Assembly (NCBI RefSeq): GCF_003334785.1
Contig: NZ_QOWV01000001.1
Source: Escherichia coli
Lineage (GTDB): Bacteria; Pseudomonadota; Gammaproteobacteria; Enterobacterales; Enterobacteriaceae
Length of the DNA: 64,000 nucleotides
Reading direction: 5' to 3' (one strand)
Shown here: one piece after another, positions 6,656 to 13,112 of the stretch
How positions within the stretch are numbered: the first letter of the stretch is position 1
Layout of the letters: every line of letters begins with the position of its first letter
Translations under genes and position numbers: made by a program
Notes under the pieces: model-generated
Seen by the model: the letters and a program-made list of their open reading frames with translations, nothing else
Database searches by the model: none
What the model was told of the DNA's origin: nothing

Positions 6656-6979
6656 ATGCAATTTTCTACAACCCCAACTCTGGAAGGCCAGACCATCGTT
6701 GAATATTGCGGTGTGGTGACCGGCGAAGCGATTTTAGGTGCCAATATTTTCCGTGATTTCTTTGCCGGTATCCGCGATATCGTTGGCGGACGTTCCGGTG
6801 CGTATGAAAAAGAACTGCGTAAAGCACGGGAGATCGCCTTTGAGGAATTAGGCTCCCAGGCGCGGGCGCTGGGGGCCGATGCCGTCGTCGGTATTGATAT
6901 CGACTACGAAACGGTCGGGCAAAACGGCAGTATGCTGATGGTTAGCGTCAGCGGTACGGCGGTGAAAACGCGTCGATGA
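6656..6979 (+). CDS. ybjQ: UPF0145 family protein YbjQ
   Basis: 107-aa ORF; stop overlaps amiD start (ATGA). Confidence 0.85.
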
Positions 6980-7806
6980 GAAGATTCTTCTGGCTGGTCG
7001 CTGCCGCTCTGTTATTGGCAGGGTGTGCAGGCGAAAAAGGCATTGTCGAGAAAGAGGGATATCAGCTTGATACCCGACGCCAGGCGCAGGCGGCGTATCC
7101 GCGCATTAAAGTGCTGGTGATCCACTACACCGCAGATGATTTTGATAGCTCGCTGGCGACACTGACCGATAAGCAGGTCAGCTCGCATTATCTGGTCCCT
7201 GCGGTACCACCGCGATACAACGGTAAACCGCGCATCTGGCAACTGGTGCCGGAACAAGAACTGGCCTGGCATGCGGGGATTAGCGCCTGGCGCGGGGCAA
7301 CGCGCCTTAACGACACCTCTATTGGCATTGAGCTGGAAAACCGTGGCTGGCAAAAATCGGCCGGAGTGAAATATTTTGCCCCGTTTGAACCGGCACAGAT
7401 TCAGGCGCTTATTCCACTGGCGAAAGATATTATTGCCCGTTATCACATCAAGCCGGAAAACGTAGTGGCACATGCGGATATCGCACCGCAGCGCAAAGAC
7501 GATCCGGGGCCATTATTTCCCTGGCAGCAACTGGCGCAGCAGGGGATTGGTGCCTGGCCGGATGCGCAGCGGGTTAACTTTTACCTTGCCGGGCGCGCGC
7601 CGCACACACCGGTAGATACCGCGTCATTGCTGGAGCTTTTGGCGCGCTACGGTTATGACGTTAAACCTGATATGACACCGCGCGAGCAGCGGCGCGTGAT
7701 TATGGCATTCCAGATGCATTTCCGCCCGACGTTATATAACGGCGAAGCGGATGCAGAAACTCAGGCGATTGCCGAAGCATTGCTGGAGAAATACGGGCAG
7801 GATTAG
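6976..7806 (+). CDS. amiD: N-acetylmuramoyl-L-alanine amidase AmiD (lipoprotein)
   Basis: 276 aa; lipobox LLAGC; amidase_2/PGRP-like body. Confidence 0.9.
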
Positions 7807-8816
7807 CGCGGCAGTTTTCCGTGGTCGCGTAGCCAGGCGGCAGTTTTCTCGATACCTTCATCCAGGGTGATGACCGGCTGATAACCTAACTCTTCCTGCG
7901 CACGCGTAATATCCAGCGTAAAGTCAAAATTCAACTTGGAGACGCCGTAGTGGGTCAGCGGCGGCTCTTTTGCTGACTTGCGGCCTAAACGCTCCATGCT
8001 GCGGGCGATCATATCCAGCATCGGGTAGGGGACGGAACGAATACGACAGTCAATATTCAACTCGTCGATCAGCTTCTGCACGATGCTGCGCAGTGTGCGA
8101 TGCTCGCCGTTGGTGATGTTGTACACACGCCCGGAAGGTAGCTTATCGCAGGCTTCCTGGCTTGCCAGCCACATTGCGTGCACGGCATTTTCATAGTAGG
8201 TCATATCGACCAGCGCACTGCCGCCATGCGGTAACAGAATACTGCCGTAGTGGTGCATCATATGCGCCAGACGGGGAATAAAGACTTTATCGTGCGGTCC
8301 GAACAGACTTTGTGGGCGCAGAATAGTAAAGCGCGTTTGTGGATTCGCCTGCGAAAGCATATTGATCACTTCTTCGCTGGCTGCTTTGCTGCGGGCAAAC
8401 TCGTTGGCGAAGCGGTGAGGGCGAAAATCTTCTTTAATATCGCGATGGTGGTGATAATCGAAGTACAGGGAGGGGGAAGAGATATGAATAAAGTTACGCA
8501 CACCCCAGGCGACAGCCCATTCACCCAGGCGGCGAGTGGCGCGAACGTTAGCCAGATCGAAAGCCTGTTGTGTCCCCCAGGGTGAGGTAAAGCTGGAGCA
8601 GTGCCACAGCGTATCAATGCCCGCGAGCATCACTTTAGCTTGTGATGAAACCAGCTCGGTCAGATCCGCCGGAACAAACTCTGCGCCCATTTTTTCCAGC
8701 AATTTGCCCATTGCCTCGTTGCGACCGGTCGCTCGCACGCTGATGCCTTTCTGGCATAAAAACTCTACCGCGTTTCGACCTAAGCCGCTGGTGGCGCCGG
8801 TAACCAGTACCTTCAT
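7803..8816 (-). CDS. ybjS: NAD-dependent epimerase/dehydratase family protein YbjS
   Basis: 337 aa from [17 protein letters not shown] (Rossmann GxxGxxG); track ORF has a 21-codon upstream extension. Confidence 0.8.
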
Positions 8817-8914
8817 ATCAATCCACTGTTGTTGAGAAAATAACGTGCGCATTCTTCCGTGATTTCCCCCATGATGCAATGGGAAACATGAAAGAATAAC
8901 GCAGGTTTTGTCGA

Positions 8915-10345
8915 TTAATCTGTGCTTTGTTCTGCCAGTCTGGCGATTTGTTTTGCCATTCCGCGAAAAATAAACAGATGCGCGGGGATCATCAATAACC
9001 AGTAAAACAGCCCCGGCATACCGTGCGGATGCCAGAAAGCGCGGACATCGATAGTACGATAGTCGCCTTTATCTTCCAGGCTAAAACACAGTCGTCCCAG
9101 CCCCGGCGCTTTCATGCCAAATAACAACGTAAGTTGTTTTTCCGGTTCAACGACAATCACTTTCCAGCTATCCACCGCATCGCCAGTCTGTAAATATTCG
9201 CGCTCCGGGCGGCCTTTCGCCAGCTTATGACCGATCGCGCGGTCCATCAACGCCCGTGTCTGCCACAAAATATTGCCAAAGAAATAACGCTCTTTACCGC
9301 CGATTTGGTTCACTACCTGCCATAAAGCAGCAAGGCTGGCGGACGTTTTAACGGTAAACCCCGCCTGTTTGGCAAAATAACCGTACTCCGGTCGCCAGCG
9401 GGCAAAGGCCTGAGCGTCGTAGCCCCAGTCGCTGGAGTTGACCAGTTTTTCCTCCTCTTTCAACGTGCTACGTACCGCGTCATCGAAAGCGATCAGCCGT
9501 TGTGGGATGAGTGCACGTAGCGCGGTATCATCCGCCAGCAGATCGTGTTTCAGCCCCTGAATCAACGCCCTGGCGGTGGTGGGCGGTACGGAAGTAATCA
9601 CATTGAGAAACCACACCGAAATCCAGCGGGTGGGGAGGGGGATGGGGATCAACCAGCGGCGCTTACCGCTCACCGCCATAAAATGTTCAAACTGTTGCTG
9701 ATAACTGAGCACCTCTGGTCCGGCGGCTTCGAAGATGCGGTGTTCGCTGGCCGGATGATCTAACAACGCAACCAGATAGTGCAGCAAGTTTTCCAGCGCA
9801 ATGGGCGTGGTGCGTGAACGAACCCAGCGCGGAGGCGTTAAGACTGGCAGGTTGTAGACCATATCGCGCATGACTTCGAACGCCGCGGAACCTGCGCCAA
9901 CGATAATTCCGGCCCGCAGTTCGGTCACGGGTACATTCGCTTCACGCAGAATGTCCGCCGTAGCCTGACGAGCACGCAGATGATCCGACTGCTCATGTGG
10001 CGGGGCCTGCAACGAACTAAGAAAGATTAATTGCTTAACTGGTACTTCACGTAGCGCATCGCGGACGTTGAGAGCCACCTGGCGCTCCTGAGCGATAAAA
10101 TCGCCGCCTTCGCCCATGCTGTGCACCAGAAAATAGACCGTATCGATATCCTGCAACAGGGCCGGTAGGTTATCCGGCCAGCTGAGATCGACTTTATGGC
10201 AACTGACGTTTGCCAGTTGCAGCTTTGCAAGCCTGTCGACATGACGTGCCGCCGCCAGGATCTGATGCCCTTGCTGGCTGAGTGTGCGCACCAGATGCTG
10301 ACCAATGTAGCCACTGGCACCGAGAACTAAAATGCGTTGCGGCAC
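8915..10345 (-). CDS. ybjT: NAD(P)-binding (atypical SDR) protein YbjT
   Basis: Rossmann motif [11 protein letters not shown] near N-terminus; GTG start inferred at 10343-10345 giving 476 aa and removing the overlap with ltaE. Confidence 0.8.
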
Positions 10346-10355
10346 GTCTCTCTCC

Positions 10356-11357
10356 TTAACGCGCCAGGAATGCACGCCAGTGGGCGGCGACTTCCGCCAG
10401 TTGTTCGCGCGAGACGTCAAGATGCGTCACCAGGCGGACAATCGGCGAGGCGTTAATCAGCACGTTTCTCGCTTTCATGTATTCGCCTAACGCGGCAGCA
10501 TTTTCTTCCCCGACGCGAACAAACAGCATATTGGTGTCCTGACGCATCACATCCGCGCCTGCTTCACGCAGCTGCTCCGCCATCCAGGCAGCGTTGTCGT
10601 GGTCTTCCTGCAAGCGCGCAACGTTATTTTTCAGGGCATATATCCCGGCGGCAGCCAGAATGCCGGACTGGCGCATCCCGCCACCTGTCATTTTCCGCCA
10701 GCGAATGGCACGTTTAATGTAATCACGATTACCGACGAGTAATGAACCGACTGGCGTCCCAAGACCTTTCGACAGGCAAATGGTGAACGAATCACAATAT
10801 TGCGTGATCTCTTTCAGTTCGCAGCCGTAAGCCACCACGGCATTAAAGATGCGCGCACCGTCAACATGCAGCGCCAGATTGCGCTCGCGGGTAAATTCCC
10901 ATGCTTCTTTCAGGTATTCCCGCGGCAACACTTTGCCGTTGTGGGTGTTTTCCAGACTGAGTAATTTGGTGCGGGCGAAATGGATATCGTCGGGTTTGAT
11001 TTTCATCGCCACTTTATCCAGCGGTAGCGTGCCGTCGGCAGCCGCGTCTATGGGTTGCGGTTGAATACTGCCCAGCACCGCCGCGCCACCGGCTTCAAAC
11101 AGATAGTTATGCGCGGCCTGACCGACAATATACTCTTCGCCGCGTTCGCAGTGACTGAGCAGAGCGACCAGGTTGGCCTGAGTGCCGGTAGGCAGAAAAA
11201 TGGCGGCTTCTTTACCGGAAAGCTCTGCTGCGTAGTCCTGCAGAGCATTAACGGTAGGGTCGTCTCCGTAAACGTCGTCCCCAACCGGGGCGGCCATCAT
11301 CGCTTCGAGCATGGCGCGGCTTGGTCGGGTAACGGTATCACTGCGTAAATCAATCAT
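10356..11357 (-). CDS. ltaE: low-specificity L-threonine aldolase LtaE
   Basis: 333-aa PLP-dependent aldolase fold. Confidence 0.9.
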
Positions 11358-11393
11358 GGCATGTCCTTATTATGACGGGAAATGCCACCCTTT

Positions 11394-13112
11394 TTACCTT
11401 AGCCAGTTTGTTTTCGCCAGTTCGATCACTTCATCACCGCGTCCGCTGATGATTGCGCGCAGCATATACAGGCTGAAACCTTTGGCCTGTTCGAGTTTGA
11501 TCTGCGGTGGAATGGCTAACTCTTCTTTGGCGACCACCACATCCACCAACACCGGACCGTCGATGGAGAAGGCGCGTTGCAGGGCTTCATCAACTTCAGA
11601 CGCTTTTTCTACACGGATACCCGTAATGCCGCACGCTTCGGCAATGCGGGCAAAGTTTGTGTCGTGTAGTTCGGTGCCGTCAGTCAAATAGCCACCAGCT
11701 TTCATCTCCATCGCCACAAAGCCCAGCACGCTGTTGTTAAAGACGACAATTTTCACTGGCAGTTTCATCTGCACTACTGAGAGGAAATCGCCCATCAACA
11801 TGCTAAAACCGCCATCGCCGCACATGGCGACCACCTGACGTTCTGGCTCTGTCGCCTGCGCACCCAGCGCCTGCGGCATGGCGTTAGCCATCGAACCGTG
11901 GTTAAACGAACCTAACAGGCGACGCTTGCCGTTCATTTTTAGATAACGTGCCGCCCACACCGTTGGCGTACCAACGTCACAGGTGAAAATAGCGTCATCG
12001 GCGGCAAAATGACTAATTTGCTGCGCCAGATATTGCGGGTGAATGGCTTTCTCGCTCGGTTTAGCTAAATCGTCCAGCCCTTTGCGGGCGTCGCGGTAAT
12101 CTTCCAGCGCTTTATCCAGAAACTTGCGATCGGCTTTTTCTTCCACCAATGGAAGCAATGCACGCAGAGTCGACTTGATATCGCCGACCAGTGCCATATC
12201 CACCTTGCTGTGAGCGCCGATGCTGGCTGGGTTGATATCAATCTGAATGATTTTGGCATCGGTCGGGTAGAAGGCGCGGTAGGGAAATTGCGTGCCGAGT
12301 AGCACTAACGTGTCGGCGTTCATCATGGTATGGAAACCTGACGAGAAGCCGATTAACCCGGTCATTCCAACATCATACGGATTATCGTATTCGACATGTT
12401 CTTTACCGCGCAGGGCATGAACAATAGGCGCTTTAATTTTCCCGGCAAACTCAACTAACTCTTTATGCGCCCCCGCGCAGCCGCTGCCACACATCAGGGC
12501 GATATTGCTGGAATAACGCAGCAGTTGCGCCAGTTTGCGTAACTCTTCTTCTTCCGGCGTCACGACTGGTTGTGGCGCATGATACCAGTGCATGGTTGCC
12601 CCTTCTGGCGCAGGTTTTAACGCCACGTCGCCTGGTAACACGACAACCGAAACGCCACGGTTAAGCACCGCTTTGCGCATGGCAATCGCCAGTACTTGTG
12701 GGATCTGCTCCGGGCTGGAAACCAGCTCGCAATAGTGACTACATTCGCGGAATAGCTCTTGTGGGTGGGTTTCCTGGAAATAGCCGCTGCCAATTTCGCT
12801 GGAGGGAATATGAGCGGCAATCGCCAGTACCGGAACGTGATTGCGGTGGCAATCGAACAGGCCGTTGATTAAGTGCAGGTTGCCGGGGCCGCACGATCCG
12901 GCGCAGACCGCCAGTTCTCCGCTAAGTTGTGCTTCAGCGCCAGCGGCAAAGGCCGCCACTTCTTCGTGGCGGGTGGACATCCACTCGATGGTGCCCATGC
13001 GATTAAGACTGTCACTAAGACCGTTCAGAGAGTCGCCTGTGACTCCCCAGATGCGTTTCACCCCTGCCGATTCGAGTGTTTTGGCGATATAAGCTGCAAC
13101 CGTTTGTTTCAT
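11394..13112 (-). CDS. poxB: pyruvate oxidase (ubiquinone) PoxB
   Basis: 572-aa thiamine-diphosphate/FAD enzyme. Confidence 0.95.

Follow-up and report, generated by a model that had tools for sequence, protein, structure and literature searches.

YbjS and YbjT of Escherichia coli: two probably independent members of the SDR superfamily encoded side by side next to ltaE

The window, i.e. the whole stretch of DNA that was analysed, comprises 64,000 nucleotides of Escherichia coli (assembly GCF_003334785.1, contig NZ_QOWV01000001.1); at this locus it does not differ from the sequence of E. coli K-12 MG1655 (100% identity). Four genes, poxB, ltaE, ybjT and ybjS, follow one another on its minus strand, and amiD converges on them. 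The genes ybjS (b0868) and ybjT (b0869) are annotated in E. coli K-12 and belong to the core genome (5425 of the 5426 complete E. coli genomes have them), and they count among the K-12 ‘y-genes’; a literature search for DUF2867, b0868 and b0869 found no functional study. The genes and motifs of the locus are as follows.

6976 to 7806, plus strand: amiD, convergent neighbour of ybjS (open reading frame list, RefSeq)
7803 to 8816, minus strand: ybjS coding sequence, 337 amino acids, ATG start, TAA stop (open reading frame list, RefSeq)
8385 to 8399, minus strand: F140-A-R-S-K144 of YbjS, with Phe at the catalytic Tyr position (four alignments)
8778 to 8801, minus strand: T6-G-A-T-S-G-L-G13 of YbjS, dinucleotide-binding glycine motif of the TGxxxGxG type (sequence)
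8851 to 8879, minus strand: candidate ybjS promoter, TTGCAT (8879-8874), a 17-nt spacer and AAGAAT (8856-8851) (conserved blocks)
8915 to 10345, minus strand: ybjT coding sequence, 476 amino acids, GTG start, TAA stop (open reading frame list, RefSeq)
8918 to 9412, minus strand: YbjT residues 312-476, DUF2867, predicted helix-grip (SRPBCC/Bet v 1/START-like) ligand-binding fold (Pfam PF11066, model, Foldseek)
9416 to 10345, minus strand: YbjT residues 1-310, an atypical SDR domain whose GASGYIG lies at residues 9-15 (Pfam, PDB hits, Foldseek)
9968 to 9982, minus strand: H122-L-R-A-R126 of YbjT, HxxxR at the SDR YxxxK position (aligned to YaaSK of 9g83_P)
10346 to 10358, minus strand: ltaE stop overlapping the ybjT ribosome-binding site, TAAGGAGAGAGAC then GTG (read from the sequence)
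10356 to 11357, minus strand: ltaE, low-specificity L-threonine aldolase, 333 amino acids, upstream of ybjT (open reading frame list, RefSeq K-12)

The RefSeq annotation of MG1655 agrees with the window in the coordinates and start codons of ybjS and ybjT. A first-pass annotation of this DNA had correctly named the two genes and their neighbour ltaE and had described two adjoining open reading frames on the same strand, and its remark that no substrate is evident holds for both proteins. Public annotation already covers both genes, the domains of their products and the start codon of ybjT, and the locus is no new kind of system. The gene order poxB-ltaE-ybjT-ybjS is preserved in about 75 of 80 enterobacterial species, which is compatible with a shared function of some sort.

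The ltaE stop codon (TAA, 10356-10358) is followed by the ten bases GGAGAGAGAC and then by the ybjT GTG at 10345. TAAGGAG and GTG recur in most of 74 related species at a distance of 9-10 nt (8 nt in two), and ybjT starts with GTG in 50 of the 74, most of the others having an ATG about two codons upstream. The GTG start 10 nt past the ltaE stop, already proposed on first reading, is thus backed by the sequence, by the RefSeq start and by the 74-species comparison, and on this comparative evidence is genuine. A longer ybjT start at TTG 10420 was considered and rejected, as it overlaps ltaE and lacks comparative support, and RefSeq gives the short form. The overlap of a stop codon and a ribosome-binding site is the layout expected for translational coupling; because the ltaE stop lies within the ybjT ribosome-binding site with the GTG next to it, translation of ybjT may be coupled to that of ltaE.

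Does ybjS belong to the same transcript? The published transcription unit is poxB-ltaE-ybjT and does not include ybjS (PMC2759082, PMC6469107). It is a stress-induced unit, with ybjT as its last gene, and according to the literature is regulated by sigma-S/Crl, SoxS, MarA and Cra; ybjS is placed in the Cpx regulon, with an induction of 2.3-fold. The ybjT-ybjS spacer is 98 nt long and holds a promoter-like element. Two blocks of it, CCCATTGCA(T) and TCACGGAAGAATGCGC, show conservation from Escherichia through Serratia and are also present in five species without ybjT. The element has a consensus score of 8/12, under the cut-off of 9 of a simple scanner, and a simple promoter and terminator scan of the spacers returned nothing useful. 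The E. coli spacer sequence alone folds at -29.2 kcal/mol (z -2.6). A conserved RNA structure or terminator was rejected, as RNAalifold found no conserved pairs in a spacer alignment of 18 genera and Rfam gave no match to the spacer. With no conserved RNA pairing, the conservation of the spacer is read as that of a promoter or operator at the DNA level, and ybjS would be transcribed from its own conserved candidate promoter. The simple scan found no obvious intrinsic terminator between ybjT and ybjS, and therefore read-through from the upstream operon may also express ybjS. A longer ybjS start at an upstream TTG or ATG was likewise set aside, as it falls inside the conserved promoter block and RefSeq has the short form.

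In L040, L047, L049, L053 and L073, ybjT is missing and ltaE and ybjS are still adjacent. The single operon from ltaE to ybjS that the first-pass annotation implied is not supported, given the promoter-like block of ybjS and the end of the published unit at ybjT, and neither is the implied pairing of ybjS and ybjT as a module, given the retention of ltaE-ybjS in these five species after loss of ybjT.

Are the two proteins related to each other? Pfam matches to Rossmann/SDR profiles are strong for both, far beyond chance (E 2.4e-29 for YbjS and 9.3e-16 for YbjT). A BLASTP comparison, however, aligns only residues 2-33 of YbjS with residues 4-35 of YbjT (E 0.002). As similarity is confined to a 32-residue Rossmann stretch, YbjS and YbjT are not duplicates. 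Tandem duplication was rejected on this alignment, and the expression ‘tandem pair’, which hinted at kinship, goes further than a similarity that stops at the Rossmann turn. The earlier description of both proteins as carrying GxxGxxG is right for YbjT (GASGYIG) and wrong for YbjS, where the motif is TGATSGLG, i.e. TGxxxGxG, and where a regular-expression search found no GxxGxxG. The term ‘atypical’, offered with no basis given, turns out to fit, as the YxxxK site is HxxxR in YbjT and FxxxK in YbjS. YbjS and YbjT probably belong to the SDR superfamily independently of each other, and they are not a pair that arose by duplication, nor do they form a module in which each gene requires the other.

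YbjS matches the extended SDR profile over its full length (Pfam Epimerase PF01370, residues 3-234 against positions 1-239 of 240, E 2.4e-29), and it also matches 3Beta_HSD (PF01073, E 6.4e-17). The spacing of TGATSGLG is that of classical SDRs and not the TGxxGxxG of extended SDRs; 79 of 80 species have exactly this motif, and so has a paralogue with 44% identity. At the catalytic site, F140 aligns with the Tyr of NSDHL (6jkg), of 9g83_P, of the 44% E. coli paralogue and of a 38% Paracoccus homologue, and all 80 species examined have both F140 and K144. S113/S114 and K144 are kept, so that the Ser-Tyr-Lys triad is incomplete only in that Tyr is Phe, and a His-rich loop, Y118-F-D-Y-H-H-H-R, is conserved. 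The pairwise dN of YbjS lies just above that of poxB and below those of ltaE, ybjT and amiD, with omega about 0.03-0.13. Judged from these substitution rates, YbjS is under strong purifying selection despite the Tyr-to-Phe change. The literature describes YbjS as an obligate substrate of GroE. How might such a protein work? A substitute acid/base might be provided by the His-rich loop, or YbjS might bind NAD(P)(H) and perform no redox chemistry.

The top-scoring curated family for YbjS is OleD, the 2-alkyl-3-oxoalkanoate reductase (NCBIfam NF042422). The alignment runs end to end (YbjS 1-328 against 1-327 of 329, E 8.9e-40), yet the score of 137 bits is far under the cut-off of 580. The nearest paralogues have the catalytic Tyr, whereas YbjS has Phe. 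No oleABC genes lie near ybjS, whose neighbours are amiD, ybjT and ltaE. Only the Tyr-bearing 44% and 38% paralogues adjoin a FabH/OleA-like (KAS III-like) condensing enzyme, together with an adenylate-forming enzyme, and the surroundings of these two resemble the arrangement of the ole genes; a literature search on this accessory lipid cluster found no functional study. The distant homologues were taken from a tblastn search of plasmids, and a scan of a genome collection with YbjS gave Enterobacterales matches only. The best PDB sequence match is NSDHL (6jkg, E 5.3e-14), of the 3β-hydroxysteroid dehydrogenase family, which has YxxxK where YbjS has FARSK. To our knowledge, E. coli makes no sterols. 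By its sequence relationships, YbjS belongs to the extended SDRs, its ancestors being lipid keto-acid reductases of the OleD/3β-HSD kind.

YbjT is built differently. Its N-terminal part matches Pfam NAD_binding_10, Epimerase and, over part of the profile only, NmrA (PF05368, residues 3-139 against positions 3-140 of 298, E 6e-11), and it carries both GxxGxxG and HxxxR in place of YxxxK, the features of atypical SDRs of the YbjT type. In all 74 enterobacterial species whose ybjT match could be read, H122 and R126 are kept, and across 102 representatives of the YbjT family with 27-58% identity the conservation of S120, H122 and R126 is 90% or more at each position. These features are presumably those of the CDD atypical SDR subgroup that includes YbjT, with HXXXR instead of YXXXK and a glycine motif of the TGxxGxxG type. 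The HxxxR and glycine motif of that subgroup were found here too among the 102 representatives, which belong to the same family; the CDD classification assigns no function.

The best PDB sequence hits of YbjT are 9g83_P (E 9.7e-9) and NDUFA9. An AlphaFold2 model of the full protein (pLDDT 94.3, pTM 0.92) gives as top Foldseek hits 9g83_P, NDUFA9 of many species, KstA11, SimC7 and GalE, with TMt of 0.67-0.76; TMq against NDUFA9 is at most 0.54 because the SDR half alone aligns. YbjT shares the SDR fold and GxxGxxG with NDUFA9 and with 9g83_P, an alphaproteobacterial NDUFA9 homologue, but 9g83_P has YaaSK where YbjT has HLRAR, and NDUFA9 is without the DUF2867 domain that YbjT has. NDUFA9 is a non-catalytic NADPH-binding subunit, the 39-kDa subunit of respiratory complex I, and a nucleotide-binding role at a membrane/quinone interface is plausible for YbjT. 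The NADH:ubiquinone oxidoreductase of E. coli consists of 13 Nuo subunits, and we know of no homologue of the 39-kDa (NDUFA9) subunit in this complex.

The long C-terminal extension of YbjT noticed on first reading is there; it measures about 165 residues and matches Pfam DUF2867 (PF11066, residues 332-463 against positions 13-142 of 142, E 1.5e-14), and its most conserved family motif is Y448-W449...P454-x-H456. In the model of this domain (pLDDT 92.1), one beta strand and two helices precede four further strands and a long helix, and the predicted antiparallel beta-sheet around the long C-terminal helix is that of the helix-grip fold, as in SRPBCC/Bet v 1/START members. Foldseek hits in the PDB are the PYR/PYL abscisic-acid receptors, MLL2253, DynU16/CalU16, MSMEG_5634, norcoclaurine synthase and YndB (probability 1.00, E about 1e-5, TM 0.5-0.6). 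Identity to SRPBCC members (PYR/PYL, CalU16/DynU16, norcoclaurine synthase, the AHSA1-like YndB) is 8-18%, and the conserved polar residues R364, D368, D392 and H456, as well as W449, have no counterpart in any characterised SRPBCC member. The domain is predicted, from the model, to be a hydrophobic-ligand domain. In the modelled structure, YbjT thus joins an NDUFA9-like SDR domain, in which HxxxR stands for YxxxK, to a DUF2867 domain, and this fusion of an SDR with a helix-grip domain is an architecture without a solved structure.

At E<1e-30, 801 clusters show the two-domain architecture. The gene contexts of distant homologues are heterogeneous (eleven loci); a B12-binding/MerR regulator recurs near three of the eleven, with no other recurrent neighbour, and a literature search on a link between YbjT homologues and B12-MerR regulators found nothing relevant. 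A secondary citation reports YbjT as tethered to the inner membrane; the model is globular, and its hydrophobic C-terminal helix belongs to the pocket domain. The basic R34 after strand 2 points to NADP(H), which YbjT would bind. YbjT might then reduce, or report on, a lipophilic ligand held in the pocket domain at the inner membrane, candidates being a quinone, an isoprenoid or a lipid-derived carbonyl. Over-expression of ybjT is described in the literature as harmful in at least 10 conditions.

What alternatives should be weighed? The annotation ‘NAD-dependent epimerase/dehydratase’ and the Pfam Epimerase matches of both proteins suggest nucleotide-sugar epimerases or dehydratases of envelope polysaccharide synthesis (LPS, ECA, O-antigen); the functional-atlas network of Hu et al. 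(2009) puts YbjT in an LPS/envelope neighbourhood with Rff/Rfb links, and the Salmonella literature names ybjT a putative NDP-sugar epimerase. The profile scores tell against it, YbjS reaching 54.1 bits with RmlB (TIGR01181, dTDP-glucose dehydratase; cut-off 365) and 38.7 bits with GalE (TIGR01179; cut-off 262), with which YbjT reaches 22.4. The catalytic Tyr that such enzymes require is missing in both proteins, glycosyltransferase or sugar-activation genes are absent from the neighbourhood in the K-12 annotation of the region, and YbjT bears the predicted hydrophobic-ligand domain. The nearest kin are lipid SDRs of the OleD/NSDHL/HpnA type for YbjS and NDUFA9 for YbjT; sugar epimerases, which the first-pass annotation chose as comparators, are not the closest relatives in NCBIfam, PDB sequence or Foldseek comparisons. 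It is likely that neither protein is a sugar epimerase, and a joint role of the two in polysaccharide synthesis appears very improbable. A short pathway encoded by one ltaE-ybjT-ybjS operon, in which threonine aldolase yields acetaldehyde and glycine and the SDR pair acts on aldolase products or on a common substrate, would account for the same-strand adjacency in about 75 of 80 enterobacterial species, the presumed tight coupling of ltaE and ybjT and the lack of a clear intrinsic terminator from ybjT to ybjS. It is doubtful all the same, both as to the operon and as to the pathway. The promoter-like block ahead of ybjS, the end of the published unit at ybjT and the five species that lost ybjT and kept ltaE and ybjS speak against it, as do the different regulators (sigma-S/SoxS/MarA for the upstream unit, Cpx for ybjS), the homologues outside Enterobacterales that adjoin neither ltaE nor each other, and the missing canonical tyrosine in both proteins.

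Perhaps neither protein is an enzyme: YbjS might be a pseudo-enzyme, an NAD(P)(H) sensor or scaffold like NmrA/HSCARG, and YbjT a non-catalytic nucleotide-binding subunit like NDUFA9. The Tyr-to-Phe change fixed in all 80 species under strong purifying selection, the Tyr retained by paralogues inside biosynthetic clusters and the non-catalytic nature of NDUFA9, the closest structural kin of YbjT, are consistent with this. On the other hand, the Ser-Ser and Lys of YbjS are kept and its invariant His-rich loop could act as acid/base, HxxxR of YbjT is conserved in the manner of a catalytic motif, and neither a partner protein nor a regulatory target is known; this proposal seems unlikely. Two independent SDR-superfamily members remain the preferred reading, and a wider and quite tentative proposal can be built on it: YbjS as a Tyr-less OleD-like descendant under strong selection, and the YbjT family as a widespread stress factor for membrane quinone or damaged lipid. 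YbjS may then rely on its His-rich loop for a new kind of catalysis, or it may sense NAD(P)H, and the YbjT family may be inducible by oxidative or light stress. YbjT combines an NDUFA9-like nucleotide-binding domain with a lipid-type pocket and, according to the published operon, is co-expressed with the quinone-reducing enzyme PoxB. Such a role would fit the position of ybjT behind the ubiquinone-dependent PoxB under SoxS, MarA and sigma-S in E. coli, and that of homologues in other phyla next to B12-dependent light-responsive (CarH/LitR-like) regulators.

At the other end of ybjS, its stop codon and that of amiD overlap by 4 nt (7803-7806), and a list of convergent excludons includes amiD-ybjS (PMC12288877).

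Four genes, poxB, ltaE, ybjT and ybjS, are consecutive on the minus strand, as seen by reading window 7600-11600 together with the ORF listing, which gives:

11394-13112, minus strand, poxB
10356-11357, minus strand, ltaE
10345 (GTG) to 8915, minus strand, ybjT, 476 codons
8816 (ATG) to 7803, minus strand, ybjS, 337 codons

The amiD gene is on the plus strand, convergent with ybjS, and the stop codons of the two share 4 nt (window 7803-7806); amiD-ybjS has been described as a convergent excludon (PMC12288877). The 4-kb stretch around ybjS/ybjT is 100% identical in E. coli K-12 MG1655 and is found in 5425 of 5426 complete E. coli genomes. RefSeq has identical coordinates, with ybjT as an SDR family oxidoreductase and ybjS as an NAD-dependent epimerase/dehydratase family protein. 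The first-pass annotation had identified both genes rightly. They are annotated, uncharacterised E. coli genes and not a new system; the value that remains is in specific, testable hypotheses. The literature counts YbjS among the obligate GroE substrates. YbjT has been reported to be tethered to the inner membrane and is placed in an LPS/envelope network, its over-expression is harmful in at least 10 conditions, Salmonella ybjT mutants are attenuated in mice, a Paraburkholderia homologue was needed for rhizosphere colonisation and a Chryseobacterium homologue was induced by cadmium. None of these reports defines a biochemical function.

Did the two neighbours arise by tandem duplication? The only BLASTP alignment between them pairs YbjS 2-33 with YbjT 4-35 (E 0.002), and on this ground a duplication was rejected; the earlier idea of a pair is not supported. 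Judged by sequence, the proteins are distant members of one superfamily. A GxxGxxG motif had been ascribed to both; YbjS has TGATSGLG, of the form TGxxxGxG, and lacks GxxGxxG, while the remainder of that observation was right.

The N-terminus of YbjT matches Pfam NAD_binding_10, Epimerase and NmrA, and the long C-terminal extension noticed in the first pass is a DUF2867 match (Pfam, residues 332-463, E 1.5e-14). Relatives fall into 801 clusters at E<1e-30 in a set of 1.84 billion representative proteins, and as most top matches span all 476 residues, the SDR+DUF2867 architecture represents an old, widespread family. Every full-length relative in AFDB50 is without a name, and no study of DUF2867 function came up in a full-text search of the literature. 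Among 102 representatives (27-58% identity), conservation is 90% or more at each of the positions S120, H122 and R126. In an alignment with PDB 9g83 chain P, the Y and K of YaaSK pair with H122 and R126; thus HxxxR replaces the SDR YxxxK in the YbjT family. The NCBI CDD entry for the subgroup containing YbjT describes this same HxxxR at the YxxxK position.

The AlphaFold2 model of YbjT, from the 102-representative alignment, has a pLDDT of 94.3 and a pTM of 0.92. Foldseek matches of this predicted fold in the PDB cover only the first ~300-350 residues. NDUFA9, the 39-kDa subunit of complex I, and its homologue from alphaproteobacteria rank first, and KstA11, SimC7 and sugar epimerases come next; the same search found no solved structure with both domains. 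The C-terminal 165 residues modelled alone (pLDDT 92.1) match PYR/PYL receptors, CalU16/DynU16, norcoclaurine synthase, YndB and other SRPBCC/Bet v 1 proteins (probability 1.00, TM 0.5-0.6). In the model, residues 442-468, a hydrophobic segment that is probably the source of past transmembrane predictions, form the long C-terminal helix of this SRPBCC/Bet v 1-like fold; the family's most conserved motif, Y448-W449...P454-x-H456, sits on it. What might YbjT do? A near-invariant R34 after strand 2, with no acidic residue there, suggests that it would bind NADP(H). It may act on, or sense, a lipophilic ligand in the START-like domain at the membrane, a role that fits co-expression with the ubiquinone-dependent PoxB and control by oxidative stress and stationary phase.

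YbjS has a full-length Pfam Epimerase match (E 2.4e-29). Its best curated family is OleD, aligned end-to-end with a score of 137 bits (cut-off 580), with HpnA and SdmB next, and its best PDB sequence match is NSDHL. F140 pairs in alignments with the catalytic Tyr of NSDHL and of 9g83_P, and all 80 species compared, which range from Escherichia to Serratia, keep F140, K144 and S113/S114. Is the gene decaying? Mean identity in the 80 species is 87.2% for YbjS, 85.7% for LtaE and 79.6% for YbjT; in four pairwise comparisons, YbjS dN is just above that of poxB and below those of ltaE, ybjT and amiD, and omega is ~0.03-0.13 with dS saturated. By these measures ybjS is not decaying.

Distant YbjS homologues obtained by tblastn against plasmids include a paralogue of 44% identity, encoded in an accessory E. 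coli cluster, and a Paracoccus protein of 38%. The two carry Tyr at the F140 position (YASSK, YAESK), and TGxxxGxG is common to all. Each is the SDR of a conserved gene set, in which it is accompanied by a KAS III-like condensing enzyme, an MBL-fold hydrolase and an adenylating enzyme related to F390 synthetase; in E. coli the set runs on into genes for a PAP2 phosphatase, a sterol-desaturase-family protein and an acyl-CoA desaturase. Gene order around the paralogues, not around ybjS itself, is similar to that of the ole genes. With Tyr-bearing homologues in such ole-like sets, YbjS seems to descend from lipid keto-acid reductases, as an orphan whose catalytic Tyr has turned to Phe. A Y118-F-D-Y-H-H-H-R loop, invariant in YbjS and absent from the paralogues, could supply a substitute acid/base. 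YbjS would bind NAD(P)(H), with either non-canonical catalysis or a non-redox role. It is unlikely that YbjS or YbjT works as a sugar epimerase, since both lack the catalytic Tyr, score far short of the equivalog cut-offs and have no sugar-pathway genes beside them.

The accessory cluster with the 44% paralogue, of seven genes and lipid type, lies between narI and purU in E. coli KE48 (locus L089:6997-13878). Of 5426 E. coli genomes, 674 have it, and most of these are from UPEC or B2-like strains. Its four-gene core is also in Paracoccus (locus L090); no account of the cluster came up in a literature search.

The GTG start claimed for ybjT is borne out by the sequence, where GGAGAGAGAC separates the ltaE stop from the GTG downstream. 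Among 74 enterobacterial species having both ltaE and ybjT, 50 have GTG at the homologous position, 46 of these with a gap of 9 or 10 nt from the ltaE stop, and in most GTG species that stop overlaps the ybjT ribosome-binding site (TAAGGAG). Several genera, Buttiauxella and Cedecea among them, have instead an ATG ~2 codons upstream, which leaves the N-terminus nearly unchanged. This conservation supports the annotated start and suggests that ybjT translation is coupled to that of ltaE. The gap is 531 nt in Serratia plymuthica (locus L081:3848-4393), in place of ~10 nt, so tight coupling does not reach Serratia. Ahead of the GTG, the ybjT frame runs for 25 codons without a stop, within the ltaE 3' end (window 10346-10420, minus strand), and a frameshift there therefore yields a fused LtaE-YbjT ORF. 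Such fusions, of 806-814 aa, are found as ~15 singleton database entries (P0002-P0016), which are probably assembly errors or rare mutants.

Does ybjS belong to the same transcription unit? The poxB-ltaE-ybjT unit is controlled by sigma-S/Crl, Cra, MarA and SoxS (PMC2759082; PMC6469107), a Reg-Seq study lists a ybjT promoter with an RNA-polymerase site only, and a 2.3-fold induction of ybjS in the Cpx regulon has been reported. The 98-nt ybjT-ybjS spacer has two blocks, CCCATTGCA(T) and TCACGGAAGAATGCGC, conserved in 18 genera amid variable flanking spacer; they read TTGCAT, a 17-nt spacer and AAGAAT. In Enterobacter sp. BIGb0383 (L040), Escherichia sp. ESNIH1 (L047), Pseudescherichia vulneris (L049), Phytobacter massiliensis (L053) and Siccibacter turicensis (L073), ybjT is cleanly absent and ltaE abuts ybjS. 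All five retain the promoter-like block before ybjS, and L047, L049 and L053 have a terminator-like inverted repeat 3' of ltaE. We infer that ybjS is driven by its own promoter, with this block as the candidate element. As a promoter/terminator scan gave no evident terminator between ybjT and ybjS, the latter may also be reached by read-through. The E. coli spacer can form a long, imperfect hairpin (window 8843-8897, minus strand), in which GCGUUAUUCUUUC pairs with GGAAGAAUGCGC; the 109-nt stretch that holds it has -29.2 kcal/mol and z -2.6, and a U-rich stretch then follows. RNAalifold found no conserved pairing in the 18 genera, and the hairpin is thus probably without a functional role.

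Among 11 distant YbjT-family genes, three adjoin a B12-binding or MerR-type regulator (loci L086:3985-5004, L087:1122-1688 and L095:1936-2838). The regulators are CarH/LitR-like and light-responsive; a fasciclin-domain gene is nearby at two of the three loci and a lipocalin gene at one. These are hints of light or stress regulation of the family in other phyla. The YbjT architecture is also found fused to a PNPOx-like FMN-binding domain (locus L085:663-2693; P0263, 676 aa) and to a second SDR of YfcH type, Epimerase+DUF1731 (locus L084:2893-5694; P0278, 933 aa); at L084 the fusion gene overlaps at its start with a peroxiredoxin gene (AhpC-TSA).
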